A DNA stretch of 57,625 bases, filler included, from Sphacelaria rigidula (lineage: Eukaryota), in assembly GCA_964200075.2 (NCBI GenBank). It is 4 parts of 4 records of this genome, joined end to end, with 100 filler letters (N's around TTAATTAATTAA, not from the genome) between each part and the next. Parts side by side here need not be neighbours in the genome. Positions count along the whole stretch, not along the records: positions 28,870 to 43,198 come from CAXNAA020002310.1; 3 more parts are not named here. One strand, written 5' to 3'. Position 1 is the stretch's first letter; each line of letters opens with the position of its first letter. Below are positions 21,423 through 47,696 of this stretch, piece after piece. Below the pieces are notes generated by a model that ran no database searches, had not been told where the DNA came from, and was given only the letters and a program-made list of their open reading frames with translations. Made by a program: the position numbers and the translations under genes.

Positions 21423-21455
<33 letters not shown>

Positions 21456-24400: not shown

Positions 24401-27102
24401 AACATTGACGAACATCTTTCAAATTTGGGACCCTTTTTTTAAACATTGTCTTGTCAGATATTGCACTCCGTTTAGAACAACGTCTCAAACGTTGTCAGAT
24501 GATGTATTCGTGTAGAACAAGACCCTTTTCAAAACAAATTGCCTGTATCTGAAAACACACGCAGATTGTTTTCTGTTCTGTCGGAGGAGGTATGCATATG
24601 TTTGTTTCATAACACGCTTCGACGTGCGTTACTGAATTTTGTTCTTGTATTCCATTCAAATTTGTTTTGTTTTTCGAAAACCTCGGGCCACAGTTTTCGG
24701 ATACCTGTTATGGACTATGCTCTGCTCACCCATGTTGCGAGGAATATTGACATAGCGGAGATGCGATTTCCAAACGCTTTTTTTTGGGAATTTGCAAGGT
24801 GATTCCCCTGTGACTTTCTCATCATCTGTGATGAATGAACTTTGAAGGCATCGATCGCCATCTTCCACGCTCCTCACCTTGGGCGCTCGTTCCTATATCA
24901 CTCACCAATTGAAACACCACTTGAATCAATAGGAGCTACTTGGAAAACACTAAGCCTGGATACGGCGATGTGGAGATGTACGACGTGTGGTCAGTGGATC
25001 GCGAGGGCGAGGCCGACCGTTTCGCGGAGCACGACAAGATCACCAACCGGAAGCTGCTGTGGCATGGGACCAACGGTACGAGGAGAATCTGTGTGTACAC
25101 TACAGACAGTATACACTTGCATGTTTCCATGCTCTTTGTTGTTTTTTGTTTCCGTTAGTGTTATTGTTAGTGTTAGGGTTATCGTTATTGTTATTGTTAT
25201 TGTTATTGTTATTGTTAGTCACCTTTGGTATGTTTGTTATATTTTTTGTTATATTGTTATTTTGTTATTTTGTTATTGTCATCGTTATTTTTTGTTATCT
25301 GTTGTTATTTTTCTTGTCATTTTCCTTTGTACTTACTATCATTTTTGTTATTGTTCTTATATTGTTCTTATTTTTGTTATCTCCGTGATTTATGTTTTTA
25401 TTTTTGCTTTTTTTAATTTCTTTTTTTTTGTTTCGTTGTTTTTGTTTTTCGTTGTGTTGTCTTGTAGTTGTCATCATTGATATCACTGACTATTCTTATC
25501 ATTGTCATCATCATTGTCATATAATAAACAACGCGCGTTCTACTATCGATGTGCAATCCTTGACATACAAGCAGGTGTGTCAGATATAATAGAGGGTGAT
25601 AATCGCAGTATTTTTGCTGTCAACTGTCTTGTGAATGTTTGCTGAAGACCCAACATGCGCTCAAAAGAGCAAGAATAGAGCAAATTACAAGTGTGTGATA
25701 ACGGTCTGCAAGGGTGTTTACTCACGACCAGCACTCCGCATCTTCTTTGTAAATAATGAAAATGGTATGTCACCATTTTCCAACGCCACGGCTACTCTTA
25801 TTCGTGTGCCATTTCCCGACTTCTACAGTTGCAGTGGTCGCTGCCATCGTGAAGAGCGGTCTCCGTATCATGCCCCACTCTGGCGGGCGGGTTGGACGCG
25901 GTATCTACCTGGCTTCGGAGAACGCGAAGAGGTGAACGGAATGTTCGACTGTACTGTACTACGTTCAATGTGATCTGTAGGGTTTAGAACATACTTGTCG
26001 TTCAGGATAATCTGTAGGGTTTCGAACATGCTTGTTGTTCAGGAAGATCTGTAAAATGTTCAGAACATCGTTGTCGTTCAGGATGATCTGTAGGGTTTAG
26101 AATTACGTGTCGTTCAGGAAGATCTGTACGGTGTGGAATATTACGTTTCTTGCTCAGGAGGACCTGCAGGGTTTAGAAAAATCGATTACAGGTGGCACGA
26201 AATCTGCCCTCGTCATGATGAACTATTATTTTCCCAAATCAGTCATGTGGCAGAGGCCGACCACTTTCATTTTTTTTTTGTCTTTGTCTACTCTGTTTTT
26301 CTTTATTTTGTCATGTCTTTGTTTCTTTGTTTTTTGTTTCCTTTTTTTTCTTTGTCCTTGTCTTTGTCCTTGTCTTTGTCTACTCTGTTTGGCTATTGTA
26401 CCTCTTCTGTGTTTCTTCACTTGTTTCAGCGAAACTTACAGTCTTGTTTTGTCTCGGATACGTCTATCTCGTGCATAATGACTACAACTGGATCATGACT
26501 ACCTGGGAGATTAAGTAGAGTGCGACAATCGAATCAATCAGTCAAGTGTCTCATATCACTTGTCATGTCGGTTGTGTGACAACTTGGGAGTGATGCTGCG
26601 GTAGGGGTGCACAAACATTTTCTGAGTTCAAAGTTGTTAGGAGTCCTATATCTCATTCAAAACTCGACTTATGAAAATATGTGAGAGTACGCCAGGATCA
26701 CTGTTCCAATATGCTGGGGATATCCCGAATGAGTTTGCAAACAGGGATGCTCTGCGACCCATATTTTCTTGTGCATCTAGAATCACTGGGAGCCCCTGAA
26801 TCGGACAAGACTTTGTACAAAAGGTGCATCCCTACTGTAGCGTTGCTCTTGGTTGCCTCATGTGATTGATCTCCACGCTTGAAAAAAATATCACCCTAGC
26901 TTGCGGTTGCATTTACTCATTTTCCCTCTGGCTCTTGAATTCCTCGTCGCTCGTTCTGGTGTCGATCAGCTTTGGGTACGTGCGGCCTGCCTACAGGGCG
27001 AAGGGGTCGAATAACGTGGGGATCATGTTTTTGTGCGAAGCGGCTCTCGGGAAGGAGGCCAGCATAACGGTCGACGACTGCAGGCTCACCGCGCCGCCCG
27101 CG
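14594..27102 (+). CDS. PARP3: PARP3-like ADP-ribosyltransferase with WWE-like, (GK)n, WGR, helical regulatory and catalytic regions; 10 exons, both ends missing
   Basis: Exons, all GT-AG with compatible phases: 14594-14726 (WTYHVDLAQMTQTNV...KIRHIRR, WWE-like); 15584-15823 ((GK)n, YDAKMNQTNISANNNKFYILQ); 18744-18905 (WSRWGRVGE...FEKKFRDKTGNKWE, WGR); 21041-21246 (GKYELIE...CTLDSATKALVELVF); 21519-21705 (EDMFKSAM...KMPLGQLSKAQV...LSARFYQ); 21921-21989 (VIPHSFGRQRPPVI); 23862-24070 (ELLNVLQDI...HPTNVNYDLL); 24933-25075 (YLENT...VDREGE...NRKLLWHGTN); 25829-25931 (VAVVAAIVKSGLRIMPHSGGRVGRGIYLASENAKS); 26970-27102 (GYV...GIMFLCEAALGKE...LTAPPA). About 1585 nt of coding sequence. HGTNxAVVAAIxxSGLRIMPHSGGRVGxGIY is the PARP3-type signature with the short D-loop. 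The His and Tyr of the H-Y-E triad are present; the Glu-bearing exon lies outside the scaffold. Confidence 0.93.
15886..15980. repeat. High-copy short interspersed repeat (core GGTGCTCCGTCTCGAAAGGGATGCGTGGTCAATGGTCAAATGACTAAGGC)
   Basis: Copies at ~15886-15980 and ~17250-17330 (reverse), ~28595-28715 (two tandem), ~31790-31865 and 43157-43198. Piece C ends inside a copy and piece B ends ~55 bp after one. Confidence 0.85.
16499..16973. mobile_element. 475-bp foldback MITE with TTA target-site duplication (PIF/Harbinger-type) in PARP intron 2
   Basis: tta|GGCTGCTTCTTATAACAGACAAAAAT ... ATTTTTGTCTGTTATAAGAAGCGGCC|tta. The arms stay complementary almost to the centre near 16735 (e.g. ggtggccgcagttttcattttggccaaaca versus tgtttggccaaaataaaaactgcggccacc). 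Confidence 0.9.
19356..20122 (+). mobile_element. Internally deleted Tc1/mariner element (767 bp) with TA TSD, ~31-bp TIRs and a transposase N-terminal HTH remnant, in PARP intron 3
   Basis: ta|CTTCCTCGGAGACATAAGTTAGCTCGATTA ... TAATCGAGCTAATTAATGTGTTGGAGGAAG|ta. Frameshifted internal peptide RYGLAMEVALAIPPGKVRLPKGVAGPLAQRYGVDPEYPAQLWK / DLSTKPRSGRPSLLTP (HTH followed by the GRP linker). Confidence 0.8.
21423..21478. repeat. (TGT)n(TGC)n microsatellite just upstream of PARP exon 5
   Basis: Read directly; it produces the poly-L, poly-C and poly-N ORF artefacts. Confidence 0.9.
22219..22463. mobile_element. ~245-bp MITE family with ATGCTACGGTAGGGGTGCAC-type TIRs; three copies in PARP introns
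   Basis: Copy 22219-22463 (atgctatggtaggggtgcac...gtgcgcccctaccgtagcat), copy 26593-26843 and a truncated copy at ~20250-20420 share internal attttctgag(g)tt...aacttatgaaa...gagagtacgccagga. Confidence 0.8.
22741..23757. mobile_element. Unclassified interspersed element with asymmetric ends, associated with TA-rich sites
   Basis: Begins ACAAGGTTCCCCT...GGGGTGACGCAAGTCGAAAA and ends GGTGAAAAGTGTGAAATGATACATGTACAT. Homologous segments at ~41436-41822, ~42520-42930 and ~40935-40990 in piece C. Confidence 0.7.
24255..24400. repeat. 41-bp minisatellite in PARP intron 7
   Basis: tgttcattcagg/aacaagttcccaaaatgttgtccaac recurs at 24264, 24305 and 24346. Confidence 0.85.
25972..26180. repeat. ~37-bp minisatellite (about 6 units) in PARP intron 9
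   Basis: gatctgtagggtttagaacat..ttgtcgttcagga repeated with degeneracy. Confidence 0.85.
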
Positions 27103-27267
27103 GTAAGGGCGGTTGGTTCAATGTGTTTTACTATCATCAACGGTTTCATTTTCCTTGGTGAAAATATGGTTGTCCTGTGTTCGGTATGTACGGTATACGG
27201 GCTGAAATTGGGGTATTTCAATAAGTATGATATAGTAGGTGTTATATATAATAGTAATAACAGTAGA

Positions 27268-27330
<63 letters not shown>

Positions 27331-27352
27331 GTAATAATAATAGTAATAATAC
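27268..27352. repeat. (AAT)n microsatellite
   Basis: Read directly; it produces the poly-I and poly-Y ORF artefacts. Confidence 0.9.
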
Positions 27353-28769
27353 CCTTCCGAACCGTACTGTACTAATTGTTCGGAACAGGGGTTAGATACC
27401 CTGCCGGACAACACCGGAATGTTTCGGTACACATTCGGTCAGTGTTATCCTCCTCGTGTTTACTTTTTTGCTACAGCTCGGAGATCAAACTGGGACATGT
27501 CATCAACGGCCAGTTCGGGTAACTTCCGTTGGAATCCCGAGATATGACCTTTTTCTCCACAAGAATTTGGTCTCTGTCGCCTGAAGCATGAGGGTATGAG
27601 GAAACTAGAATTATGAAATTCCACGACTGTCGAGACTCTCCGGGAGCGGTGATCCAGCGCTTTCGTTTTTGTTCAGTTTACCTCGTTTGTTCTGTATCCC
27701 CCCCCCATTTTGATTTTTTTTTTCGTGTTCTCTCCCTTTTTGTCGAATTTCCTCTTAGCCGTTGTTATTCGGTTTTATTCACCTCGGGTATATGGACCTT
27801 GTGTGACAACGGCTGGGGATCAGCTCGTGTGCGACAATCGATCGATAATTGAATTCATCAATGCATCAATGCATCAATGCATCAATTCATCAATTCATCA
27901 ATCAATCGGGCAGGTATCGAGGAAGATATACATGCGGTGTTTGTTGCCTTCAGACTACTGTCACGGACAGGTACAGCACCGATGTATGAATTGAAGGTCG
28001 GCACCGATAGACACAGATGGGCACACTACCAATATAGGCAGCGTCAGACATCAGTAGGCACGAACAGGCACAATTCCAATCGTCACCCCCTATCAGGTAT
28101 CACCCCTTATCGATACGTCACTGATTCAAAAAAAGAACATGATCTTGCAAAGTATGCTCGAGCAAGGGTTTCTGGTGGTGATTATTCGATATTCTGTGTA
28201 ACCGTTTGACCGCTCGGGTCACTTTGTTGGATGATGAACGGAGGGGAATTTAGGGCAGGGGGTCCCGGATACCTGTTTTTGGTGCAGAGACAACGCTTAC
28301 AACGAGAAGGCCGTTGCTACGCGTATGCTGCACGTCATGGTGCAGTTGTTCGTGCACAAAATACGACCGGGGAAGCAGTGACGTGGGAAGTACAGGAAGA
28401 CAGTATAGCGTTGGTCGCGCCAGCGGGACATGTGGCCATGCATGCGCGGAGATGTCATGGCTTGTGCATGATAGCTGTGGCGCGCAGCACATGTGTGACA
28501 GCATCCCTTTGTATGTAGGCGTTCTCTCCCTTACAAACGAACCTCCAACCCTCCCCCCCCGTTCTTGTTGGAGACGTCTCTAATAGGAACACGGACGGTA
28601 CTCTTTCTCGAAGGGGATGTGTCGCAAATGGTCAAATGACTTTGGCATGCATGCTCATGAGTACACCCCTAGTAGGAACGGTGCTCTGTCTCGAAAGGGA
28701 TGCGTGGTCAATGTGGAATAAGGTGGGATGAAGAAGTCGGGAAAGTGTGGAAGGAGATAGGCGGAAACC

Positions 28770-28869
28770 NNNNNNNNNNNNNNNNNNNNNNNNNNNNNNN
28801 NNNNNNNNNNNNNTTAATTAATTAANNNNNNNNNNNNNNNNNNNNNNNNNNNNNNNNNNNNNNNNNNNN
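28770..28869. other. Artificial scaffold spacer N44-TTAATTAATTAA-N44
   Basis: Same 100-bp structure as the spacer at 14336. Confidence 0.98.
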
Positions 28870-29184
28870 CCCCCCTACAAACGCAGTATGTGAAAGATAT
28901 ATATATACACACATATATATATATATATGGACTCTAGAATTGCCTGTGGCGGAATTTCAGCGTTACACCGCTGTGACTATACAAAGCTGAGTTTGATGCT
29001 GTTCAATGCGTGGTCTCGCGGCGGTCGGGTACTTGTGTGATGTGCTCCTTATCATCTCTTCAAGTTACTCAAACATTTCCGTCAATAACATCCACAATGG
29101 AGCCTTGGCAGTACCCTTGCTTTGTCGTCAACGAACGCAGTGCACCCCACTTGATTTTGTGTTTAGGACTGTAGTAAGTCTTAC

Positions 29185-29262
29185 CTCCATCTTTGGCAGT
29201 GTTGCTGGTGAAAGTTGTATCGCCATCGATAGTCATGCTGCTGTTAAATACGCTGACAGCAC
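29185..29262 (-). CDS. Pmp/adhesin-like beta-helix repeat exon (78 nt, phase 1-1)
   Basis: ctgcAG|GT GCT GTC AGC...GAT GGA G|GTaag, encoding (G)AVSVFNSSMTIDGDTTFTSNTAKDG(G), with the GGA(I/V) and FxxN motifs. Confidence 0.75.
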
Positions 29263-32200
29263 CTGCAGCGAGAACCCGACGCACGCAGAAGTTAGATGCA
29301 CCTGGGTGATGGGGTGTTACATCTGCAACACGACATTTGGAATGCGCTGGGTGAGGTGGAAATCTCCATGTTGACATTTCTCACCTCGCGATGCTCTTAT
29401 TTACGTACCCGCCATGTCTCAGCGATGGATGGAAACGTAGCATCGAAACGAAAACGACGGTGGTGAATGTTTCCGCACTGGAAATGCGGTGGATAGTTCG
29501 GAGCTCCGCGAACGTTGGTTTGAACGCGATTATTGCTGCCCCGTTCATCGATGCCTCCCTCTTCCGAGCTTCACCCAAACTTAGAGCGGTGCTATTATAT
29601 TGTAGTGCCACTTGCCGGACGACGCACGGTAGTGCTTCGTTCGAGCACGCAATTGGGGATCTGAGCAAAACGAGAATAGCTTAGGAATGCTCCATTTCCC
29701 TGTTGAAGGACCATATACGTCAACTTATCGGCGACACCCACCCGATTTCCAAACAGACGCCATGTGACGATGTCCTAGGTCACCATAAACTTTGGAAGGA
29801 TGGCCCCTGCGTGCGTCTTGGGGAGGGGGCTAATCTCAGGCGAGGTATCATCCCCTCAGACGATTCTTTTTCCAGAGCATAGTGGAGGGAGAGCTCCGCA
29901 TACTCAGGAAATGTCTGAGGGAATACGTCAATTCGAAACCTCCACCGTTATGGTGGCATCGCATGCGTATCTTGCCAACAATCAAAGTGCCGGAGTGCAT
30001 CACTGAAGCCGAACAAACACGTTTCTGATTTTATGGTAAAGCACGCCGACAAGCAACTAGAACAATTCCACCGAAACGGGGCGAACTTCACAGAGAGGGT
30101 TTTTCCTTCGGAAGCTCGGCATCCCGCACGGTAAACTTTCATCGCGCATTGATGGTCATGCCACACGTGAAGGAACAGCTCGCAAGATAGGACTGGCTAC
30201 GGAGGATTGTGACAAAACAAGTCCCCAGCAGCCATGAGGATCGTTCCGTGGTCCAAGAACAAAACACAGAACAGTCCTGTGCGTTGTGTAGTGTCTCCCG
30301 CATGTAGTTCCTTGAAAAAAAAAAAGGCGAGGCATGGAAATGAACACGTTGTGAAGGAGGAACGCCGAAAAGCGGGGGAAGGGCAAGCGTTGTGTCCAAT
30401 CGGGTGAGCTCCGTCCTCTCAAGGTCTTGTGCAGCCGTTGCATGTGCCTGGCAGACCGAAGGCACGTGTTTCGAGTGCAGTATGTTGGCCGTGCGGGGAA
30501 ACGCGAAGTAATCTCGCATGGGGTAGGCCAGGCATAACGTGCATTTGGTCGGTAACCATCAAACCCATTCGTTCCCGAAATCCTCCGGTAGTTCGTCCAC
30601 GGTAGCGTTCAGGATGAAGGGAGGAGCTTGTCCCCTACGTACACCACAAGAGCTCCCCCGCTGTCGTGTTTGACAAGTACAATAGGGACGCTATGACGTG
30701 AGATAGAAATCACTTACATTATATTTGGTGTCACGAGTGTCGATAAAAATACGGATATTAAAAAAAACTTCAACCAGCATAATGAACAAAAATCCCCCCG
30801 TGCAAGATAGAACGTGTGCACGACTAGATGAAACATTTTTTCAAGAGGCGAAAATATAAGCGCGGAAACAAGAGTATGCAGTTTCTCCTTCACATAGGAT
30901 AAGAATTTCTGACGGAACCTGATTAAGAACTTCGTACAGTAAGCAGCACGTTGCGGTACTACCTCCTGCGGTGAGGGCAACAGGTGCACACAGCTTGAAC
31001 GTAAGGAAGTGGCGCGTTTGTTCATTTGCACCAGTTTGCGGGCACGACGCGCGTTGAATGTGACGTGTTCAAGGTGAGGTACGCCTGACGCAGCAATGTT
31101 TGCCTTCTCGAACCTTAACTGATCTATGTGTTTACAGCGGGGCGCTGACTCTTAGCCTGGTTCGGATTTCAATTATAAATTTATGAACAGGGATAATCTT
31201 ATGGATTGGAATGGAGAAGGGGGAAGTAGAAGGGAGAAGGAAATTGGTTAGGTGACAGCAAACGTATCGGGAAGAGGTCATTCCTTGTGGTCGGCTAGGG
31301 GTTGTTTCGCTTAGCCCGCGGAAGGAATGAGATACAGCAGACGTGTGTTATCGTGCAAGCTGCCCTTGGTTGCTTGCTGTTTTCTCTTTTTCGTAGTGTT
31401 CCTCTCTCCGTCGATGCCAAGTGAGAAAAGATCATGCGAGCGGAGGATTTACGGCAGCTTTCAGCTGCAAAGATTCATCCTTGTAATTTCTCCGTACTTA
31501 CAGTTTTCAATAGTTTTGTCGCGTGCCATAGTTCATCCCAATGATCGTCTGATCTTGGAATTTGGGGATCGGAAGATACCACGCATCCGCTCCACATTCC
31601 ACAGCAAAAATCGTCTCTGCCCTCAATATTGAACGACTTACTGGCTGAATTGACAGGGGGTGTTTCATTGACCCCTTTGGTCCAAAACATGCTTTTCTCA
31701 CTTTAGCGCAATAAGTTGGCGAAACAAAGAAGAAAGGTGCGTAAAAATATTCACGAGGGCGACTGGGATTGGTTTTTCCCCCTCTTGCTCGGTGCTCCGT
31801 CTCGAAAGGGATGCGTGGTCAATGGTCAAATGACTAAGGCAAACAACAAATGAGTGCGCCCCCCTCTTGCTATGCAGAGCTCGGTTGGGCACTTTTCGTA
31901 GTTGGAGACTGATCTGAACTTTCCCGTATGGCGTCCTCCCTTCTCAATATAAGGTCCTAGCGTCGATAGATATTGCAGGGAAAAGGTGTGTCATGCTTAG
32001 AACACAATACTCAGTTTGTGTTGTCGGGGTGATACGGAGTAAACACAATGTGTATCAAGGGTGTTACCGATCGTCACTGGTCCAAAAGAGACATTTCTTC
32101 GTCTCAAAAGCAACAAATAGGCATGGCTTTGAAAAAATACTCCCCTTTACATTTGTTTACGAAAACGATCGGGGTTGCTTCAAACGGGCAAAAATACCCA

Positions 32201-32959
32201 AAAGGATCAGAATTCTGGGGATGGGTAGTTGTTGCACCCCCGAAAACAGGTCGTCCCCTTGGTCGTCCAACGATGAGTGCACGGATGATTTTGTTCCCGA
32301 ATATAGCGCGGATGCCTAGAATCTCCTACTCCTGCAAACTGTGGAACCAACGTTCCCCGGGATGAGGGACGGCATGCGAAAACTCAGAAGAAAATCACGA
32401 TAAAGTCACAGAAATCCCCTATATTTTAGCAGGTAACCATTGCAGGGTGAAAGTTCGACCGCATGCCTGAGGAGTCATGGTTGTGTGCTAGGTGTTATTC
32501 AACGCCGCTCCCCGCCTTTTCCTTTTTCCCGTATGCACAGCCAAAAATCACCTCCCTCCCCCATTGTTTCAGACTCCCTTAAAAAAAACGTGTACACACT
32601 GTCCTTGAGATAGTTTGTTCCTCCATATTCATCCACGAATCCTTTTAGGGTATGTCCGATTGTTCTCACGAGTCGCTCATACCTGACCACGCTCGACTGT
32701 CATGCCCAAGCGGCGAAATTTGTACGCGAACAGATTAAGCATGCTGTGGAGCAAAGACGTGCGCAATGGACACATGCATTATCGGTGAGCCCTTCAATCT
32801 TCACCGGGAATATGGCACCGTTCTCCTTGTAGCAGCCGAATTAAACCCTCGACACCGAGGTCGACTGACAACAGGCGGGCGGAAGTTCGCAACGCAGTCA
32901 TCTGTAAGGTGTGGAATTTTGTATACTCGAGATAATTTTACTTGTACTACTCTAACCTC

Positions 32960-33240
32960 ACAATTCTGCGACTTTTGTAACACTTCATACCAGTACCCGA
33001 CACTATTGTAACGTCAGTCAAACTGTCATACTCCTACCCGATTGTTCTGTGAGTTCTGCACCACAAGTCTCTCATAGCCGTACTCGATAAATCGGGGAGT
33101 TATGTAAACCTCTCATACCCTACCCGACAGGTTCTGTAACTTCTGTAAAATTACTATACCGGTACCCGATAGCTCCGTAAATTTTGTATGTTCTGCAAGT
33201 AATATCATACCCTACCGGAGATACTCGTACCTTGCAGAAT
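32960..33240. repeat. Degenerate tandem repeat (tcataccctacccg...ttctgt(g/a)a.ttctg)
   Basis: The motif recurs at ~32985, 33027, 33114 and 33206. Confidence 0.6.
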
Positions 33241-35563
33241 GTTGCCCTGGAAGTTTGCACCAGAGCTTCTGCGCTGTTCCACAAGTTTAAAGTAGGCATG
33301 ATGTGATTCTGTGTCTCACAGAGGCTTACTGCCAAGAGCTCATGGCCGCGCGAAGACTGTGGAAGGAATGGGAGTGTTTTTCAAATCAGCGAATGGAAAT
33401 TTCTGAAACTATCGCGGCAGTTGATCGATGTGACAGCGGGAAGGACGGACAAACGACATACAAATATCGGGTTCGACATGCCCGTGGTAATGGGCGCAGC
33501 TCCGAGGCCTGAGTACAGTAGACCGGCGGTTATGCTTCTTGTACTGTGCAGTTCCGAACTAGATGACATTCACAATGGCTGAAGGTGTCGACAGTCCATT
33601 TAGAATGGTGTAAAGCTCCGTGTCTTTCAAATTTGCGGGGAAAGGGCGCATACAAACCCACTTGACGTCACTCGTGCTCGTGGAATACGCCGAAAGAGAA
33701 AGTAGCGATGCTCACAGAGTTTATAACCTCTCTCTCGCCATGATGTAATTGAAATCATGATGGCGTGCACTTCAAAAAATCTAAAGGCGAAAAGAGAAAA
33801 TCGCGTTCGGAACAATAATACTTCGGTAACTTCATCAGGTTCAGCTTCAGCTCAATGCCACCTCTGACCGAAAAAGGTTTACAACGCTTCCCTTCACTGC
33901 TCTCCCTCTTCTGTTCCCGAACGCGCATTGAAAGAGTCAGCAAAGATCTGACATCGACCCCGCTCGAAACATGAATGTATGCACTTGCTGAGGTCGAAGT
34001 ACATAGCGTTTGGATGTGGTTTTACACGACGTGTGGCAAGCTAGATTTTTCAGCCATTGACGTCCTGAACTCTCAGGCGTTTGCACCAAAGTAAAGATGC
34101 AATGGTCGGCCTTAACGCAGTGCTTCACATGATGAAGTACCGTATGTATTTCATGGATGACGATTTCGAAGGTTCGAATGTCCAGTATACTCTTGAACAT
34201 TTCCGCAATCTTTCCCCGAGCTCTTCATGTTCCCTGGCTCATCGAAACGTACAGAGGTCAATACTTCCGGATCCAACGAGAACGGTACCGCACGGATACT
34301 TGTACTCAGAGGGCAAACACCCCAGTTCGGTGCTCGCTCCATCCGACGTGTTTCTTGTTTCCCCCGTATTTTGGATTTGTTGGATTGCGCGACGTAGCGC
34401 TACCTGCTGATGCGTCGAGCACGTCCGATGGCACTCGCTGTACCGAGAGATACTGACTACATTCCTAGTAATAAACCGGGTTTCACTCCGCAGAGATGTG
34501 CTGTCACAGGCACATCTTGTACAATACCTTTCGAAGATTGAATCGTATTTTTGTTTTGTTTTTTCCTTTTTTATTTCAGGTCCGCCATCTCTTTCTGGGC
34601 TTTACTTTTGTTTTTGGTGTTTTTTTACGTCATAATCGACTATGTCGTTGTATTCGACTCTTCTTTTTGCTCTTTCTTTTTCCTGAGCGAGTGTTTTAGT
34701 TTTGCTTTTTTTTGGTACGTTTATTATGCAACCATGGCTGGATCCATGGGTTGTCAGTTAAAGTGCGACAATCAAATCAAAGTCAAAATCAAATATGCAC
34801 CATCTGTTCACAGGAGACTACGTCGTCATTGTCAACAGGTACTTGATACAGGATGCAAAAGCATCGGCCATCATCACACCGCATGTCCAACCAAACGATA
34901 TACCGAAATACAATCAACAGAACATGAGCGGCATGCGTGTGGCGAGAACATGAAGCGGCGCCTAACTATCAGAGTGGAGCCACACTACACAAAGATCGAT
35001 CAATCTAGGTGCGTACAGTGATAGATGGCTGTTGGATTCGATAGTCACTCACTTCCATTCCAAAACATGAATCTATTCGGGGGTGAAAGGAGGGACCCGA
35101 CGTGATTCAATGCAAAGTCCCGCGGTTTCCGTTCACTTTCCCAATGCGCTCCTTATGACTCTTTTCCAAACTCTCAAGTTCCCCCAAACGTATTTGATAT
35201 TCACCGAGTCTCCCTCCAACCACACGACGTCCTGGGTGCCATTGTATGTGAGATACATACATGTAGATGAAAGGAAGTCGCGGTCGGCACTGCGTCATCA
35301 TGACGCACAGGCATATCTTGAACAAGCCGCCAACCTTCTTGAAGGTCAATCCTTCCTCTTTGTGTTTCGTTCGTGATTCAGCATCCAAACTAGCCGGCAA
35401 AGGCTAACAAGTGACGGCGAAACACGACGGGTCTACCATATTGTTCTGGTATAACTTTGCCGCGGTCTAGACATGTAGGGATCCCAGCTGCGCTTCCTAC
35501 CGCTCTCACAGAATGGTGCGATTCGAATGGTCGATTAATGACACGATTTTCTGGTGACATTAG

Positions 35564-35773
35564 TGTAGCGCGTGAGAGGACCGCGTACTTAGAGGACCGC
35601 ATCTGAATTTGAGCATCCCTATGTTAGGGTTAGGGTCAGGATCAGTGTTGGGGTTAGGGTCACGGGTGTGGTCCCTGCAAGGATTGGCTCGATTGGTTTC
35701 GAAAAACGTCGATCCTGGGTTTTCTTGGACTACGGCGCGGTCCTCCAAGCACGCGGTCCTCTCACGCATTACA
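35564..35773. mobile_element. 210-bp MITE with TGTA...TACA ends, ~37-bp TIRs, 5-bp ATTAG TSD and internal TTAGGG-like repeats
   Basis: attag|TGTAGCGCGTGAGAGGACCGCGTACTTAGAGGACCGC ... GCGGTCCTCCAAGCACGCGGTCCTCTCACGCATTACA|attag. A related reverse copy lies at ~39590-39780. Confidence 0.8.
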
Positions 35774-36783
35774 ATTAGGATTGGACAGATGAAGCCGTGC
35801 CTCTACCCAGCACAGAGGAGGTCAGTGGTGTACACTTAGATGTGCGAGAAACTGACAGTGACGAGGGTTGCCAAATTCGCATCGCCGATACTTGTACTCC
35901 TCGAAATGCCGAGGAGGGTCCTTGCAGACTCCATGTCTCCCTACATATGCAAGGGATTCATTTGAGCTAGGCTTCGGCATTGAACCAGGAACACACTGCA
36001 AGTAAGCCACAACAAGAGGACCAAACATATTTCCTCCATCCCGTTTTTGCTACTCTGTTTCGCTTACTCCACCATTTCTCGGTTCGCGCGACGGGATCGC
36101 TCCTCCGGGGAAAGAACAGCCGCAAACGGTGGCATGCAAAAACAAACCAACGAATGGAGCCGAACAACACTGATGACAACGTTTGCTGCAGTAACCCATG
36201 CTATGTCCCACCATAGAATTAAACATGGGGAAATATTTGTTGTCCTGCGTGCAAATGGTAGCTTAATGCATGCGGTCATATATCAGATTTCAAGTCGTCA
36301 GCATCATCATTCCGTGCCTCACACACTAGGGACGAGTATTCTCGGCTACCAGGCAGTACATTTTCCAAACGAGGCCAGCGTATTCGGAGCTCACTGCTAA
36401 CTGAAACCCGACCAAGCGAACACAAGCCACATGCGTTTGACAGAAACATGAAACGCTAAGTTAACGGCAAAAATCCCCGCAACAACGCATAACGATCGAC
36501 ACGTCAGGGCGTTTACAGCAATACATTGACGCTTGGACTAGTCGGCGTGTGGTTTTCGACCCTCAATCAACCCGGAGGTGAAAAACGGAGTCCGTTATCG
36601 CTCGGTGCACGGTGTCGTGGTGTTTGCGTGCTTGAATGATGACGTACGTCTCGATATCCTTTCGAATCCCTCACAAGTTCCCATCAACAATTTTCATGAA
36701 GGCGATTCGGAAGTACTACGTGGCTTCGTCATATCTACACATTGCTCTCACTTACATGTGCTTAGGGATGCTTAGTGTCTCAC

Positions 36784-36864
36784 CTCCAAAATTCCCGGCA
36801 GTGTTGATGGCAAAAGTCGTATAACCATCGATGTTGACGTCGCCGAAAAATACGGAGATGGCAC
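36784..36864 (-). CDS. Pmp/adhesin-like beta-helix repeat exon (81 nt, phase 1-1)
   Basis: ccgtAG|GT GCC ATC TCC...TTT GGA G|GTgaga, encoding (G)AISVFFGDVNIDGYTTFAINTAGNFG(G). Confidence 0.78.
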
Positions 36865-39029
36865 CTACGGCGTGAAAACGGACGCACCAAGCTTTCAACA
36901 ATGTTGCGCCAAAAAAACAAAAATGTTTCGGAACAGAATTTGACCGCTTTCCCCCCCTTGTGCGCACTGCTGCAACGCGCAGCACCAGAGATAGTGATGT
37001 GGCACTGTTGACTATGGTTCTCATAACATATGGCCGAAGTTACAGCACATTTTACCGTCTACAGCGCGCGTAAGGCCGTGCATCATGAACTGTGCACCTC
37101 TGCAGACAATATGCCCATTGGTACACTACCGATAGTCATGATTGAGAAAAGTGACGTATCTGCAATACGAAACTATTGGAATAAGGCTCGTGAGGTGGGG
37201 TATTCCTTCATGACATTTCTTGACTCTATGCGTTCATCTGCACAGCCATGCGTACTTAATCATGGATGGCAGCAGAAGATCGAAAGTCAAGCAAGTGGGT
37301 GTATGGACGTTTTCGCACCAGAGATACGGGGGGTAGAGATTGAGGTATATGCAACAGGATGGGTTGGAGGCAATGGCATCCCCCTGTTTACCGACGACAC
37401 TCTAAAGTATATTTTTCTCTACTCCATACATACTGGGGGCATAGTATATTTTGCGGCGTAGTGCAGTGTGATACAGCCGAGCAGGAATCTGGGGATCTGC
37501 TGGCTAGAGTAAGAAGGGTCCGCTCGCTCTCTTGGCGTGAAACACGTACCAAAATGTGCGGAGCTCTGCTGTCCCCTTCTTTCCTTGTCGCGAGAATGTA
37601 ACGTCGGGCCGTCCTCAATACGACATACTCTTTTCGCAGGGCCAGCGGTAACAACCTGCGGAGGCCGTAGGATTTCTTGTGTTTTCGAAAGATCAGAAAC
37701 TGACGCACTTTTGATGAAGGAGGGTCTGCGGCTACAGTCGCCGAGAGAGGATGAGCTCCCAGTCGAACACACACGTTGTGGGGTGTGCATATTCACAGAT
37801 GTCACCAACACGCCCAGCACGGTAGAAACCCCGCGGCGTATGAGTTGGTTCACGCTCATTACCTAAATAACTCTGATCGGCAAAACTTCACGCCATTTCC
37901 AGAAGTCAGACCCTGAACGTTTGCACAAATGTACTATGGGCCGTTGCACAACTTTCTCATGTCGAAGTTTTCTTGACGTTTTGTATTTTAAAACCTCGTT
38001 CATCCAAAGTTGCGCCATGACCTATAACACATTTGTGTAAAATTTCAGCATCTAACTCCGAAATGCGGCGTGAAGGTTTCCGAGTTTGTGCGACGAACGC
38101 CGCCGTGCCACAGTGAAACCGCGAACCACTCGATCTTAGGACGAAAATGGCGTTTTCGGGCCTTCTTTGACGTGGTCCTGAAACTTCAAGCACCAGGGAA
38201 TCGAGTGTCACCACGCAAGTTTGTGGGGCCCAACATTGAAAATCCTTCAGAGGATCATGAATACCCAAGATGCTCTAGGGGGATTTCAAAACGGACGGAA
38301 CCGAGGATGGCGTTTGTATATTCCTCTACAAGATAGCCGAATGGCCGCGTGTATGCCACTGAGGCCCTCGATACCCCTCAGTAGGATATCAACGTGTAGC
38401 TGTAAGCATATGGCAGTGATGAGACGACGAAAATCACACACGAAATGAAAAATTGGCCAAGTTAAAGCGAATGATCAAAGCCACTCTCAATCCGCACCCA
38501 ACTCTCAATCTCACGAAAACCTTGTTGAATGGGGTTCACCAATGTAACCACACAGCATCAAGTTATAGGCTGTCAGCACCAACCGTACCCAATACATTTT
38601 GGACGAGTGCTGTCTGGTCCGGCACAAAACCTCTTCCAAACGAGTAATTGCAATCCGATCTTACAGGATACTGATACAGTACCCAACCGAGCAAACATGA
38701 ACCACATATAGTCCTGGATCGAAACAATCACGGTACTTTCATCAAAATCCCAACAACACACGAAGATCGATCTAGGTGTTTCCAGCCATAGATCGACTCT
38801 TTGAGTAGTCGATCTGGCGGTGCAACATCGAGTACGTTGCCATTCAGCGTGTCGTGTCGTGCCATTCGGGTGCTTGAATGAGGTGTTTCTCCACATCTTC
38901 CCGCACATATGTTTCACAATTTCCCGTCAACTACTTTCTCGATAAGGGTTCGGCAGCACTGTCGCTTTACCTTTTATTACCACCACCTTGCCACCTATTG
39001 GATGTCCCTCGGGCCGCATCGTGTCTCAC

Positions 39030-39110
39030 CTCCCGTTTGTCCTGCACTGTTGCTGACGAAAGTTGAATTGCCGTGAGTGGTGACGTCGTCGTGAAGGACA
39101 CAGATAGCAC
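39030..39110 (-). CDS. Pmp/adhesin-like beta-helix repeat exon (81 nt, phase 1-1)
   Basis: ccgcAG|GT GCT ATC TGT...ACG GGA G|GTgaga, encoding (G)AICVLHDDVTTHGNSTFVSNSAGQTG(G). Not in the ORF track. Confidence 0.75.
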
Positions 39111-40513
39111 CTGCGGCGAGAGCAACAAGGACGCATCAAGCCTTCAGATGCGCTTGGGTGACGGGTTGCCACATTTGCGCTGATTTCTTCACGCAGAACA
39201 CTTCGAACGTGCCGCCTCGGGAGTGACTTACGCCACGGTTACCATACTTTCCTCCCTCGATGCTCTATTCTGTACACGGGTGCTCTCCTGGAGGTAGACG
39301 GCAGCATCACATCCGTACCAAACAAATACGGCCGCAAATGTTCCCGTACTGGATATATCTTGGGGTGATCAAGGCTTCGCATGGACACAGGATTCTGAGA
39401 AGAACTAAAATCGAACATAAAAATGAGGTTCAACTCCAAAAGTTGAACTCCAAAATAGCTGCTCTCCCTGACTTGACATCATTGCAGAAGACTCTCCTAT
39501 AAATCGTATTCCTGCCCGATCTCCCTCAAACTTCTTTGCGGGGTTTCCCGTCTTCCGTCGCCTCAGGGGCTGTGATGCGTGGGATAAACGCGTGCTTTCT
39601 GGACGGCATCGCTATTGAATACACCCCCAGCATCAACGTTTTCCAAGCCCAGTCGGGCCAGCCTCCGCGGGGACCGCACCCCCGACCCTAATCCCAACAC
39701 TAACCCCAACATTAGCACGAACCATAGGGGTGTTCAAACTCCGATGCGATCCGAAAAGCACGCGGTCCTCCCACACATTTCAGAGGGAGTGTGCGAACGC
39801 ACGCTATGAAGCACCCTTTCATTCACCCCCAGAAACGAGGCAAAGTACTGCTTCCACGAATACCTTTCTAGGAATCGAAAGCAGGAACCCTCCAAAACCA
39901 GTTTCAGGGAGATCTGGGAGGGGGGTGAGGTCGCCCATACGAATATCATTCGTTATGCCTTGGGGAACGTACAGGCCTCATTATCCTGTTACCACGAATG
40001 AGATTCACCAATGCAACCATGTTTCAAGTTACAGGTGATCAGCACCAATCGTACCTCAAACATTACTGGCGAGTAAGTGTTGCCTGTCACGGCACGAAAC
40101 CTCTTTCAAACGAGTAGTGCCATTCAGAGCTTGCAGGATACTGATACCCAAGCGAGCAAACATGAACCACAAATAGTCCTGGATCATCACAGTCATGGTA
40201 ACCATGTCATGATCGAAAAAGCACGCAAAGATCCATCGACCTAGATGTAGATCGACTCTTTGAGTAGTCGTCGAGGTGTTTCCAAGAGTGGCCCAACCTG
40301 CTCGTGCAGCATCGAGTACGCTGCCACTCAGCGCGTGGTGTCGTGCCGATCGGGTGCTTGAATGACTTGTTTCTACATAACTCCCCTCATCTATATTTGA
40401 CATATTCCCGTCACCCACTTTCTCGATAGCGGTTCGGCAGCACTGTCGCTTTACCTTCCATGGCCACCACCTTGCTACCTATTGGATGTGCTTGGGGCTG
40501 CATTGTGTCTCAC

Positions 40514-40594
40514 CTCCCGCTTGTTGTGCAGTGTTCCTGACAAAGGTGGTATACCCGTCAGTGATGACGTCGCCACCAGTCACATATATAGCAC
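40514..40594 (-). CDS. Pmp/adhesin-like beta-helix repeat exon (81 nt, phase 1-1)
   Basis: ccgcAG|GT GCT ATA TAT...GCG GGA G|GTgaga, encoding (G)AIYVTGGDVITDGYTTFVRNTAQQAG(G). Not in the ORF track. Confidence 0.78.
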
Positions 40595-41435
40595 CTGCGG
40601 CAAGATAGAAAAGGGCGCACCGAGCCGTCGAATACGCGTGAGTAACAGGTTGTCACACCTGCGCCGACTTCTTCACGCTGAACACTCAAAACGTCACGAA
40701 AGCAATGCTCACCTTTTGATGCTTTGTTCTCTATACCGGTATTGCCTTGATGGTCGACATCAGCTGCGCATCCGAATCGACTAGATACGCTTGCAAATGT
40801 TTCATGCCCTTGACAATACAATATGTTTTCAATATATATATATATATATCGGTCGATCATGTTGGAATTCCGCGATATATTGCCGGCGAAATATATATAT
40901 ATTGGTACCCCTGGACTGCACACGTATTGCGCGCCAAAGAAATCTCGGCAGAAGTGGTGGAAAATGTGAAATGATATATGTACATATATATTGCCCGCTC
41001 AACATGTCGGCGCATCGGGTGGTCAATATATATTGGGTGAGCAATACGATGGCTCGAGACAGGATCAATCTATATTGTGCCATCAATAAGTCAAGTCTAG
41101 AGACATGCAACGTATTTCGACCGAACAGTATATCACGACACGCGCCGCCTCAATATATATATATATATATTGGCCGAGTAATATGTTGGTGCGGTAAGGC
41201 ACCGATTTATATATATATATATATATATTATATTCGTCGAGTAATATATTGGCTGCCACACGAGGTCATTATATATTGGTGATTCGATACACTCAATAAC
41301 CAAAGCGCCAATATATATATATAACCGCCACAATATGTCGTGCGTCAATGCGTCCAATATATATATTGGGCGGACAATACACGAGGGAACGGACGGTCAC
41401 ACTACGTATTGGCGTAGTAATATATATATATATAT

Positions 41436-42930
41436 ACAAGGTTCCCCTCCGGGACGCTGATACGGGCCTTCCGGGGGTGACGCAAGTCGAAAAAATATAT
41501 TTTGTCAAGTTTCCCACAATCAGATTTGATTGATTGGTTGATTGATTAATTGTCACACTTTAAGTGACCCTCCAGAGGTCCAGCCGTGGTCTCATGATGA
41601 ACATACCCAACAAAAACGAAACCGCGCGAAAAAGGGCTAGTTTGAGCGACTTTCGGTGGCCAGAACACGCGCCACAGGTATCAGATGGCGCCCGAACTCG
41701 AACGGTAGTGTACCGCTGAGCCTTCTCGGTGCGCTGCAATAGGACGTGTGGGAAAAGATGCCTTGCCGCCAGAGGAAACTCGGCAAAAGCGGTGAAAATG
41801 TGAAATGATACATGTACATAATATACATCGCACGTGAAAGCACTGACGGCGCTTGCACGACCGTGCCTCCTGAAGTGAGTACCTCTACAGGCGATACCAA
41901 GATGGGTACCGCGAAAGATGGCATCATCCAGGGTGTACCCGATACGGATCGATGCTTGTTTGCCGGGGCGGGAGCCACACAGCAGGTCATGATGTGGAAG
42001 TGAGCGCATCTGCGTGTCTATATATGCATCCACTGACGTTTCACACAGTGTGGGCCGAGAGGACTCCGTTTTGAGGGCGTATCGATGGTATTGCCCATAA
42101 TCCGTATTCACTTCGTGGGTCCGGCGCACCACGTAAAGCGTGCCGCCGATCCGGGAATATGCTGTCTGTATTGTGGTCTACCTCTGTGCCAATTTTCAGA
42201 CTGGTTTGTTCAGACACGGCGGAGAAACCCACAAGCAAAGTAACGCTTGACTTGTACTGAAAATACAGTACTAAGCGGTCGAAAGATACATGAGGTGCGT
42301 ACTCGTATGATTCTCCCTATCATCCCTGTCACAAGGACAAACCTGTCAACTCTGTCACAAGGATATCCCTGCGCCAGTACTTCAAAGATGCATCCTACGG
42401 GTTGCATGATCACAGGGATTTCGGCACCCCGCTTTGCTGTTCTACACAGTCGACCCACAGTGGGGACGTTTGCCCACTTGTGTGCCTTGCTCAACTCGTC
42501 AAAGGCTCTGGTGTTTGCTGCTGACTAAGGTCAAGGCAATGCCCAATTGTTTTCAACTGCATCGCTCTCATGTTCTCGTGAGATTGGCGGCATAAGCGGT
42601 GAACTAGTGCTCCCAAATGAACGAGAACCCGACGAAGAGAAACACGGGGGGAAAATACCCCGCCAACCAACATCCTGCTGCTTGAAGTGTTTCATGAACT
42701 TGGGAAGGCTTTTGTGGCCCAGGATCGACACCCCGCGAAAAAGAGCCAGTGCGGGCGACTATTGACGGCCAGAACACGCGCCACAGTTATCAGATGACAC
42801 CCAAACCTGAAAGGCTATGTACCGCTGCGCCTCCTTCGTGCGCTGGAAAAGAAAGCGCGTGATGAGATGCCTTGCCGTCAGACAAAACTCGGCAGGAGTG
42901 GTGAAAAAAGCGAAATGACACATGTACATA
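41436..42930. mobile_element. Two tandem, partly deleted copies of the interspersed element seen at 22741-23757
   Basis: Shared left end tacaaggttcccct at 41436; the right-end motif gtgaaa..gtgaaatga(t/c)acatgtacata occurs at ~41790-41820 and ~42900-42930; flanked by (TA)n. Confidence 0.7.
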
Positions 42931-43198
42931 TATATGTATATATATATATTGATTTTCAACATGTAGATTGGAAAGTGTATCGAAATTAGTATGGCGGGCA
43001 GTTCTATGTTCGCGGGCGCCATTGAAAGATGTACCACCACATGCCGAAAACGCTCAATATGTTCCTCCGCGACCGTGTTCAAAATAGAGTGGCTGCACCA
43101 AGGGCGTCCGGAAAAAAAAATCCTGGACCCTATGTACCCCCCCCCCCCCTACCCCCGGTGCTCCGTCTCGAAAGGGATGCGTGGTCAATGGTCAAATG

Positions 43199-43298
43199 NN
43201 NNNNNNNNNNNNNNNNNNNNNNNNNNNNNNNNNNNNNNNNNNTTAATTAATTAANNNNNNNNNNNNNNNNNNNNNNNNNNNNNNNNNNNNNNNNNNNN
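43199..43298. other. Artificial scaffold spacer N44-TTAATTAATTAA-N44
   Basis: Same 100-bp structure as the other two spacers. Confidence 0.98.
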
Positions 43299-44000
43299 GT
43301 GGCCACCAATGTTTATTGCCAATCACACCAGGATCTACCACGCAGCCACCAATACATATTGTTGGTCACAAAAGGATACCAAATGCGCCCACCAATGTCT
43401 ACCGCTGGTGACAATGCAATTTGAATCGCGGCCACCAACATCTATTGCTGACCACAAAGGTAGCTGAATGGCGTCGATCACTAGCGCTATGTATGCACAT
43501 TTTTTAATTCATGTTTCCGCCTTACTCCACAGAAGCTATGACTAGCTATCGCCTCGGGTCGTTGCGTGTTCATGTGTAAGGGGTATTACCGTTGGTATCA
43601 TGAGCCCACTGCAGTGAGCAATTTATTTTTCAAAACCTATCGTTGGCGTCACTTGCTGTCAATGAGGTGCTCCCGAGACCAATCAATTGTTGACAGCAAT
43701 GCCCATATTGGTTGACACAAAAAAATGCATGGTTGGTGGCAGACGTCTCACCAAAACTATTGATGGCGGTAATAGGTATTGATGGATAACTCACTTAATC
43801 TATTGATGACGGCAATGACTATCGATGGATAGCTCACCAAACCCATCGATAACGGCAGTGACTATCGATGGATGGCTCACCAAACCTATTGATCACGGCA
43901 ATGGCTATCGATGTATACAACCCAGAATCTATTGCGGTACACGATATCCATCGATGGCGAGTGGTCTCTATCTATTGTAATTGTCAAAGGCTATCGATCG
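43299..44000. repeat. Degenerate ~42-43-bp tandem repeat blocks
   Basis: ccaccaat..tattg units at 43302-43460 and ctcaccaaacctattgat.acggcaatg.ctatcgatgga units at 43748-43915. Confidence 0.7.
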
Positions 44001-45454
44001 ACTATTGCAACATCTTTTGTCCCTCGCAATACATGTCAATAGATGTGTTTCACCATCTATCGTGTTCGATAATATATATCGATAAAAAAAATCCTGTGTC
44101 TATTGCTGAAGCAATGAACTATTTTTGTGCTTGTTGTCCAGAGTGTGGAAATTTCAGCAAAAACAAGATGATGTCATAAGTCAAGGAAAAAAACGAGAAT
44201 CTGAAGCTGCTTCAGTGATGTATCATTTCCTTGGGTGCAAAAGGTCTTCGCGAAATTTCATCTCAACAGTCGTCGAATTGGGTCGTGCGTGCAACGTTTT
44301 GCGTGACGCTGCTGCACCCCTGTAATTCAAGTGATATGAGACTCCAATTATGGAGGTCATGAGTTCGAATCCCGACATATTCTCTTTTTTTTTCATGCGT
44401 CGTTAAGGTCATATATTATGCAGTACATTTTTCTTCATTATTTTCTTTCACTCAGCGGCGGTGCCGTGTGTTACCAGGTTGGTCTGCACTTCACAGTGAT
44501 ATGCTTACATCGGGTTCATTCGGGAAACTGGGAAAGCTGTAGTGTGGACAAAGTTTGTCCGCTTTTAAGCTGGCCCGGCTCGTACCAGTTCAACTCTGCG
44601 TGCAAATCGCAACGGGAACACGACCCGCTGCCTCGCCTATGCAGAGCTGGGCAGAGAAATAGGTTGTATACCACACGGACGAGCACCTAGGGTGGATTTA
44701 CTACCCGGAACTTATGGTTCGGATAATAAAAAAACAACGATGTAGCTTCCCGCCGTGGTTGTATATACAGTGGGCGGTCTAACTATTCATTTTATGGCAT
44801 TTTGTGAGTTTTTCGTCATTGGCGATTATCTTGGGCTCTTTTTGCTTGCCACCGCGTATCACATCGGGCATCTGAAGATATTTGTTTCCGCTCCACATTC
44901 CAAGAAAAAAACCCATCGTTCCTCGATATTGAGTCACGTACGGGCTGCCCGGCTATCGGGGATCCTGCCATGTTTCAGCCCAGATTCTTACTTTTCGGTA
45001 TTTTCGGTCGATTGAGCCTGTGCCGATCATATTTGTGAAGGAATGTACACTTTTTTTTTTTTTTTCAAGTCTACCTACTCATTGCACTAGAGCCGAAAAA
45101 CTGTGTTTTACGGTCAATAACACCCTCCTGAAAAACGGGGGTTTCACTCGAATCGCCCGATACCACCAACTAACACTGACTTAGGCACTGTGTTTCGAGA
45201 AAGATCTGTTAATTGTTCCAAAATCTACCGACTCTGGTAATTTTGAGTTCTATCGAAGAGTAGTAGACGAGGAAAACCCCTTGACACCCCTGAATAGTTA
45301 GACCGCCCACTACTGTACTTCAAATTTCACTGTCATCATCTAACTCGCCAAACTTGCTCAAATATAGACTGCGAGAGTCTTCTATTAGCCTCATCATCAG
45401 CGACAGGAACTTATCTTTTGCACCATATTTCGGTAGTAAAAAAAAAAAAAGCAC

Positions 45455-47413: not shown

Positions 47414-47696
47414 GTCCGAATTTACGCTGGCTATACGGCCCTACCCGCACTATCACACCACTCATGTCCACATTAGCCCAGGATCAGATCCGTAATGGAC
47501 AGAGTAGAATGACATATACACCCAAGTGAAACCAAGCCTATCGTAACGGTTACGCCCAACGACCCAAGTCAGCAGTGCAATACAACACCGCCCCAGCGGC
47601 TGGGGCGTAACACCACAGAGAGACAAATTACTCCGATATTCTCTCAATTGTTCGACAATATTGCTCTTGGGGGAGGGAAATCCCTGTGGCAACGTC
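47414..47696. promoter_or_regulatory. Probable bidirectional promoter and 5' UTR region (283 bp between divergent ATGs)
   Basis: Predicted starts at 47413 (minus) and 47697 (plus); inferred from geometry only. Confidence 0.5.

Follow-up and report, generated by a model that had tools for sequence, protein, structure and literature searches.

The stretch of DNA considered here (the window) comprises 57.6 kb from the brown alga Sphacelaria rigidula (GCA_964200075.2), in 4 parts taken from 4 records and joined with 100-letter fillers, so that adjoining parts need not be genomic neighbours. In one of these parts (window positions 28870-43198, from CAXNAA020002310.1) lie four short exons on the minus strand, each of which encodes a single repeat of the type known from the chlamydial polymorphic membrane proteins (Pmp). 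We call them A to D, and by a cassette we mean one such exon together with the intron sequence that flanks it.

Four single-repeat exons and their transcripts

A preliminary description of this DNA had placed here four minus-strand exons of 78 or 81 nucleotides (nt), with canonical AG/GT sites, phase 1 at both ends and exactly one repeat in each, and on all of these points the analysis agrees with it. The exons and the introns between them are as follows.

Cassette exon A (P0001): 40514..40594, minus strand, 81 nt, phase 1-1, one Pmp-type repeat
Cassette exon B (P0002): 39030..39110, minus strand, 81 nt, phase 1-1
Cassette exon C (P0003): 36784..36864, minus strand, 81 nt, phase 1-1
Cassette exon D (P0004): 29185..29262, minus strand, 78 nt, phase 1-1
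Intron A/B: 39111..40513, minus strand, 1403 nt, GT-AG
Intron B/C: 36865..39029, minus strand, 2165 nt, GT-AG, with high-copy repeats at 37952-38907
Intron C/D: 29263..36783, minus strand, 7521 nt, GT-AG, with high-copy repeats at 31738-32215, 34606-35083 and 35562-36039

An AG precedes and a GT follows each of the four. All the exons open with a GT that completes a Gly codon whose G ends the preceding exon, which makes both borders phase 1; the starts read GT GCx AT/GTx, that is, G|GA(I/V), the ends are GGA G in every case, and the intron interrupts the second Gly codon of the GGA(I/V) motif behind its first base. Exon D is one codon shorter than the others, and its donor is GTAAG where theirs is GTGAG. 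With the split Gly codon included, the translations are GAIYVTGGDVITDGYTTFVRNTAQQAG, GAICVLHDDVTTHGNSTFVSNSAGQTG, GAISVFFGDVNIDGYTTFAINTAGNFG and GAVSVFNSSMTIDGDTTFTSNTAKDG for exons A, B, C and D, each of them holding one unit of the pattern GA(I/V)xV…TFxxNxA…G, and when the four peptides are aligned nine columns are invariant (G1, A2, V5, G14, T17, F18, N21, A23 and G27), F18 and N21 of the FxxN motif being common to all the units. A hidden Markov model (HMM) of the four peptides gives 63.2, 60.7, 56.5 and 55.3 bits on its own exons, and the next best stretch in the six-frame translation of the window reaches 4.6 bits, so that the signal stands far above chance and there are exactly four copies in the window. 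Since the phase is 1-1 in every exon, the reading frame is kept with any whole number of cassettes.

The transcript evidence consists of assembled contigs only, of low depth (2.6-6.6), from which rare isoforms drop out. Four of the sequencing runs (X1-X4) are only guessed to be RNA, no run being recorded as such, and for X1-X3 this nature is deduced from contigs devoid of introns and from empty intron bins; X5 is a DNA run, with a single-copy depth of about 65-80. Read placement took in the exon-bearing stretch, leaving out 27.4-28.9 kb and all that lies beyond 43.2 kb, and the exon-exon joins were read from aligned contig pieces, none being among the 15 joints listed of a set that has 108 more.

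In a contig of X2 (676 nt, depth 6.6) the segments 40596-40511, 39107-39027, 36861-36781 and 29259-29183 follow one another without interruption, and a script check found this string to be the canonical GT-AG join of A-B-C-D, with AG ahead of and GT behind the exons, the 3-base offsets in the borders of the pieces arising because exons and introns both start with GTG. The same contig extends past the four exons on both sides, by 20 nt upstream and about 331 nt downstream, into sequence that falls outside the stretch covered by read placement. In X1, exons A and B are contiguous in one contig (217 nt), which matches the window with 0 mismatches, and another contig (415 nt) carries exon D and 302 nt further downstream that are unplaced; in both samples the transcript continues for 300 nt or more past exon D, and further exons must therefore exist. 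The depth of X1-X3 is zero in single-copy intron bins (e.g., 29826-30303, 33650-34605, 35084-35561, 36040-36517 and 36996-37473), in which X5 has a depth of 65-80, and the contigs of X5 read through the exon-intron borders (35749-36981, 38820-39747 and 40429-40839). Joined, intron-free contigs in two samples, together with a DNA run that reads through the introns, indicate that these are not pseudo-exons, an outcome that the preliminary description had named and that the joining of the exons in genomic order in X1 and X2 rules out. No exon-skipping join is found among the contig pieces listed for X1 and X2, although minor skipped isoforms could escape the contigs.

Two stretches of the introns have cover of their own. 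Within intron B/C, 37474-37951 is single-copy (X5 depth 78) and has a depth of 29-36 in all three RNA-like runs, several-fold above the Pmp exons, with a loose end of X2 and X3 at 37894; its long reading frames match no Pfam family, and a nested transcript is one possible source of this cover, a non-coding RNA another. Within intron C/D, an unspliced X1 contig of 223 nt (depth 2.5, 0 mismatches) covers 29491-29713; pre-mRNA, carried-over DNA or an exon that escaped recognition could account for it.

Repeat family and predicted fold

Taken singly, the exons have no Pfam match at E<=10, and with the TIGR01376 model (POMP_repeat) exons A and D score 13.1 and 13.4 bits, short of its cutoff of 15. 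The end of this model matches the first 12 residues of exon A and its start matches residues 14-25 of exon D, half of the model being covered in each case, which implies that it straddles the junction between exons. The four units, lengthened by a small number of read-through codons, were also made into a profile and searched against 1.84 billion representative proteins; 145 proteins matched at E<=1e-3, among them 13 at E<=1e-10, and most showed 5-19 matched stretches. Among the 25 top multi-repeat matches of these 145, which were scanned with Pfam, PF02415 (Chlam_PMP) lies above its cutoff (20.6 bits) in 24, the remaining one being a DUF11 adhesin; PF13229 (Beta_helix) is also present in 4, and LNR/Notch domains in 3. 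With the GGA(I/V) and FxxN motifs present in the exons themselves, the identification of the repeats as Pmp-type, already put forward in the preliminary description, is upheld.

The four exons joined in silico give a peptide of 106 residues without a stop, which aligns over about 100 residues with several homologues (P0074, 48% identity, E 2e-24; P0018, 47%; P0011, 48%) and has 40-42% identity over 106 residues to three proteins that combine LNR domains with Pmp repeats (P0006, P0009 and P0023), the cluster of P0023 including a protein of Ascophyllum nodosum. The best full-length match, P0074 (48% over 108 residues), comes from a JGI/IMG contig of 39.7 kb and bears the source name 'predicted outer membrane repeat protein'; it may be bacterial, which raises a bacterial origin of the algal family as a question. 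A word-based protein search with the 57-residue frame around exon A, confined to longer proteins, returned 13 candidates, none of which scored, so that the product of this gene is absent from that collection. Neither an autotransporter beta-barrel nor the Pmp middle domain was found in the 25 homologues at E<=0.001 (the window was not searched with autotransporter models), and for a spliced eukaryotic gene, membership in the chlamydial Pmp autotransporters is unlikely.

The N-termini of the homologues are, by eye, hydrophobic and signal-peptide-like, and LNR domains are extracellular in Notch. By analogy, an extracellular location, with a role in binding or adhesion at the cell wall or surface, is plausible for the Sphacelaria product; this surface role is read from the homologues only, because no signal-peptide or anchor exon was found for the gene itself.

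As regards the fold, the model of the homologue P0018, from a 15-row alignment, is an all-beta solenoid (mean predicted local distance difference test, pLDDT, 88.3; predicted template modelling score, pTM, 0.88). A sequence search of the PDB with P0018 gave 0 matches, and its best structural matches there, with TM-scores of only 0.2-0.44, are all right-handed parallel beta-helices: GH110, PL6 alginate lyases, the mannuronan C5-epimerase AlgE, RbmB, phage tailspikes, polygalacturonases and the adhesin PfbA. In the chlamydial proteins, the GGA(I,L,V)…FxxN repeat has been described as one coil of a predicted beta-helix with the motif residues facing inward, residues 615-641 of PmpD being given as an example of one repeat per coil (PMC11166332). 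By analogy with that description and with the model, one exon would probably correspond to one coil of a right-handed parallel beta-helix in the product of this gene.

The same type of exon appears outside the window, as far as can be told from reading frames of public assemblies, on which all our statements about the wider family are based. Short frames with a single repeat make up 34 of the 145 profile matches, and the 16 whose source was looked up all lie on Logan or ENA contigs of 0.6-8 kb. In 28 of the 34, the residues directly after the repeat are GG[EK], which is how GGTGAG or GGTAAG donors read in translation, the other 6 falling outside the pattern; the unit has 27 residues in 21 of these 28, 26 in 6 and 32 in 1, in which the pattern probably started too early, and hence the layout of a 26-27-residue unit plus donor occurs in 27 of the 34. 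Residues such as LAA, which correspond to a pyrimidine tract and AG read through, precede most units, and the translated intron of three frames (P0044, P0051 and P0067) matches the introns of the window. Altogether, the genomic reading frames with this type of exon fall into at least 27 distinct clusters at 50% identity, which suggests that the 81/78-nt phase 1-1 exon is the usual building block of a sizeable family that extends beyond one locus. The DNA pattern of the cassette had 0 matches among metagenome contigs.

Origin of the array and competing explanations

That exon and intron were duplicated together, as the preliminary description had proposed, is supported at several levels. When each exon is aligned with 150 nt on either side, blocks common to all four copies appear on both flanks; a DNA profile of the cassette, of about 380 nt, finds the four copies with E about 1e-95 to 1e-102 (nhmmer); and A and B form a tandem pair, homologous over about 800 nt at about 75% identity, with a start-to-start spacing of about 1.48 kb. 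The extents of the copies are these.

Cassette with exon A, upstream copy of the youngest tandem pair: 40028..40832, minus strand, exon plus flanking intron
Cassette with exon B, downstream copy of the youngest tandem pair: 38562..39372, minus strand, exon plus flanking intron
Cassette C envelope: 36639..37016, minus strand, exon plus conserved intron flanks, nhmmer E 8e-95
Cassette D envelope: 29036..29411, minus strand, exon plus conserved intron flanks, nhmmer E 5e-96

The intron motifs that had been quoted for this homology fare less evenly than the homology itself, which is present at the flanks of all four copies: GGACGCAYCAAGC occurs in 2 copies, GTGTCTCACCTCC in 3 (0.08 expected), and GGGTGAYGGGT once exactly and 3 times with one mismatch, for 2.1 expected by chance, so that they are general only in part. 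No further cassette was found on either strand of the window by the nhmmer DNA profile, by the protein HMM or by tblastn with the 145 homologues.

Exons A and B differ at 22 of 81 nt and 12 of 27 residues (56% identity), just as had been counted by hand. This exon divergence (27%) is close to that of the accompanying intron (173/699, 25%; Fisher p 0.68), and the whole-exon dN/dS (Nei-Gojobori) of the six exon pairs ranges from 0.24 to 0.88, with 0.63-0.88 in the youngest pairs and 0.24-0.37 in the older ones. In other words, the exons are under constraint, which is least marked in the youngest pairs, and replacements are not in excess; the idea that the variable positions evolve under positive selection finds no signal in these values, all of them below 1, nor in an exon divergence so near that of the intron.

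In parts of the introns the depth exceeds that of single-copy sequence by factors of hundreds to thousands, and insertions of such high-copy repeats explain the uneven spacing of the exons. A high-copy element also lies beside two of the fillers (28770-28869 and 43199-43298), 43156-43198 being identical to 31790-31832 and 28679-28721 84% alike; bins with this element have a summed depth of about 40,000 in X1-X3 and of 790,000 in X5, against about 65 for single-copy sequence. Rfam recognises no family in the window.

We consider it probable that A to D are four constitutively spliced internal exons of an ordinary, weakly expressed nuclear Pmp-type repeat gene, lengthened coil by coil through the duplication of cassettes. 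Each exon of 81 or 78 nt would contribute one repeat of 27 or 26 residues, probably one coil of the beta-helix; the array would have grown by tandem duplication of exon-plus-intron cassettes, a kind of event that the symmetric phase would have allowed to persist; the copies would then have drifted at about the neutral rate, keeping the inward framework (G, A, I/V, V, G, T, F, N, A, G), and transposon insertions would have lengthened the introns to 1.4, 2.2 and 7.5 kb. The number of coils and their surface could thus be changed over evolutionary time by the gain and loss of exons; within an individual no sign of such change was seen.

A number of points weigh against this account. The first and last exons of the transcript, including a start exon with a signal peptide, were not recognised in 27.3-29.2 kb or 40.6-45.4 kb, and the single exons remain below the curated family thresholds. 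The X2 contig has 10 mismatches to the window in about 321 exon bases (the three differences listed are two synonymous ones and a Thr-to-Ala change at T17 of exon C), and may stem from another allele or from a paralogue that arose very recently. With a depth of 2.6-6.6 the cover is very low, in X3 the exons have none, and the RNA status of X1-X4 is a guess, supported by the missing introns and the empty intron bins. As for the product, four coils are short for a stable beta-helix, which makes a decaying gene remnant possible, and AlphaFold2 has been reported to over-predict beta-solenoids for repeat sequences (10.1101/2024.10.30.621056).

The preliminary description had envisaged another use of the same architecture: cassettes that are skipped, reordered or exchanged, by splicing or recombination of subsets, would yield recognition or adhesion proteins of variable length and variable surface. 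In its favour are the phase 1-1 and the 81 or 78 nt of all four exons, and the recurrence of their type in at least 27 clusters; in brown algae, LRR and TPR genes have been described as showing exon-per-repeat shuffling combined with alternative splicing (PMC3341825; PMC11378527), and the differences between the copies fall mainly outside the nine invariant framework columns. However, the contigs of two samples (X1 and X2) contain the same exons in the same genomic order, with no skipped join among the pieces listed, and the inactivated or antisense intronic repeat exons that Zambounis et al. used as a hallmark (PMC3341825) have no counterpart here, the protein HMM, tblastn and the DNA profile all having found no inactivated, extra or antisense cassette in the window that could act as a decoy. 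If we add that exons diverge no more than introns, that dN/dS is below 1 in all six pairs, and that no signalling domain was found nearby (among 25 long reading frames, which small exons would escape), a diversity-generating role becomes unlikely for this array.

We would also call it rather unlikely that the array is the transcribed remnant of a decaying Pmp-repeat gene, one that is still spliced but gives no functional secreted protein. Open frames and canonical AG/GT sites in all four exons, a spliced peptide of 106 residues without a stop, the low dN/dS of the older pairs and a transcript that continues at least 300 nt past exon D in two samples all speak against decay, even if four repeats are few in comparison with the 5-19 matched stretches of the homologues, the start, signal-peptide and C-terminal exons were not recognised on either side, RNA depth is very low or, in X3, nil, the introns are swollen by high-copy repeats, and dN/dS rises to 0.63-0.88 in the youngest pairs. 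It is far less probable still that the cassette is a mobile or transposon-carried unit of which the local array would be a by-product: the intron flanks are conserved in all four copies and in unrelated short contigs (P0044, P0051 and P0067), and there are many contigs with a single cassette, but recent tandem duplication also predicts conserved flanks, the copies of the window all share one strand, one phase and one transcript, the repeat scan gave no terminal repeats or target-site duplications, and no dispersed or antisense copy lies elsewhere in the 57.6 kb.

Viewed as an ordinary gene lengthened by cassette duplication, the array invites comparison with systems already described. In brown algae, ROCO genes have one LRR per 72-nt exon and NB-ARC-TPR genes one TPR per exon, a layout on which an adaptive-like immune repertoire has been proposed, and a genome-wide screen in Ectocarpus judged exon shuffling to be 'overwhelmingly restricted' to these two kinds of loci (PMC3341825); the LRR exons are of 72 bp and phase 2 (PMC11378527). 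The array shares with them the brown-algal lineage, exons of a fixed length with one repeat in each (72 nt for the LRR, 81/78 nt here), symmetric phases that keep the frame, and growth by exon duplication, and as in ROCO-LRR genes each exon would add one unit to a parallel beta solenoid. It differs in having a Pmp-type beta-helix repeat and phase 1-1 in place of the phase 2 of the LRR exons, in the absence from this window of intronic inactivated or antisense exons, in showing no ROC-COR or NB-ARC domain in the 25 long window frames (which, again, would miss small exons), and in giving no signal of positive selection and no alternative splicing in the contigs of two samples.

With the chlamydial Pmp proteins (PF02415/TIGR01376) it has in common the GGA(I/V) and FxxN motifs, a period of about 27 residues, homology at the level of profiles, and a predicted arrangement of one repeat per beta-helix coil (PMC11166332, and the P0018 model); in contrast, this is a eukaryotic gene split by introns, with four repeats only and single exons that score below threshold. 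The brown-algal LNR-Pmp proteins P0006, P0009 and P0023 have the same lineage, repeat type and approximate period of 27 residues, although they carry LNR domains and 9-17 matched stretches, and tblastn found no LNR exon in the window. Pmp-like surface proteins are also described in Trichomonas, a eukaryote of an unrelated lineage, with Pmp-type repeats and a proposed role in adhesion (PMC6701047).

Among the titles and abstracts returned by full-text searches of the literature, none describes Pmp-type repeats with a separate exon for each, in line with the impression given in the preliminary description; supplementary table 2 of PMC3341825, in which such loci might stand among the candidates dismissed as artefacts of prediction, was not covered. 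The only mention of Pmp in brown algae found in this literature is a gene label in a reverse-transcription quantitative PCR experiment in Saccharina (PMC10573767), and a preprint on 60 brown-algal genomes makes no mention of polymorphic, PMP, beta-helix, Notch or exon shuffling. An expressed Pmp-type gene, together with dozens of look-alike cassettes, means that the restriction to LRR and TPR loci is not complete; it provides a second solenoid fold on which the shuffling hypothesis could be tested, and enlarges a repeat family known chiefly from the adhesins of bacteria by a eukaryotic branch split by introns. Alginate lyases and mannuronan C5-epimerases, enzymes whose substrate is the main wall polymer of brown algae, are among the closest solved folds, and so a role related to wall polysaccharides is worth testing beside adhesion. 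A wider proposal, for which we see some possibility but which we hold to be doubtful, is that of a third exon-per-repeat class in brown algae, a large family of Pmp-type beta-helix proteins built from 81-nt phase 1-1 cassettes, in which gain, loss and exchange of exons, and possibly regulated skipping, would tune how long extracellular proteins that bind wall polysaccharides or microbes are, and what surface they present.

Terminal exons and neighbouring features

The search for the ends of the transcript yielded few candidates. On the upstream side, an ATG frame ending at AG|GT in phase 1 was sought in 40.6-45.4 kb, and the 2 candidates obtained were unconvincing; on the downstream side, AG|GT acceptors with a pyrimidine tract were sought in 20-28.8 kb, where one of the 2 candidates, at 27797, is speculative and would end the protein after 7 codons. 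The minus-strand frames in 27.3-29.2 kb look non-coding. A GGTGAG donor-like motif lies about 120 nt upstream of exons A and D (in the regions of 40713 and 29390) and is conserved in 2 of the 4 cassettes; it may be what is left of a second exon that the ancestral unit possessed, or may be due to chance.

A further minus-strand gene, at 45320-47440, contains a low-complexity frame of 413 residues that ends at CAG|GTG near 45455 and has no Pfam match, and a TPR-looking frame at 47063-47440, also on the minus strand. It is a different gene: its donor near 45455 is of phase 0, and neither this phase nor the last bases of its large exon fit the exon that precedes A. The 413-residue frame has a 99% identical counterpart on a Logan contig and 19 weaker relatives, and because all of them are unnamed single-exon frames they are uninformative as to a fusion with Pmp exons.

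On the plus strand, a multi-exon PARP gene with WGR and PARP_reg exons occupies 15482-27375; its exon at 21388-21816 has 76-78% identity to the PARP of Ectocarpus sp., Ascophyllum nodosum and Laminaria digitata, a resemblance that by itself points to the brown algae or a near relative as the source, though probably to none of these three species. PARP_reg is the only Pfam family assigned among the 25 long window frames, WGR, EBNA2_Core and TIG_plexin remaining below the curated cutoffs.

The fillers between the parts, at 14336-14435, 28770-28869 and 43199-43298, each consist of 44 N, 12 bases and 44 N, and the N pattern is also listed at 10819-10828 and 11405-11414. A long (AAT)n microsatellite stands at 27249-27362, between the 3' end of the PARP gene and the Pmp-like gene in the window, and a 43-bp tandem repeat is present in four copies at 43747-43918.

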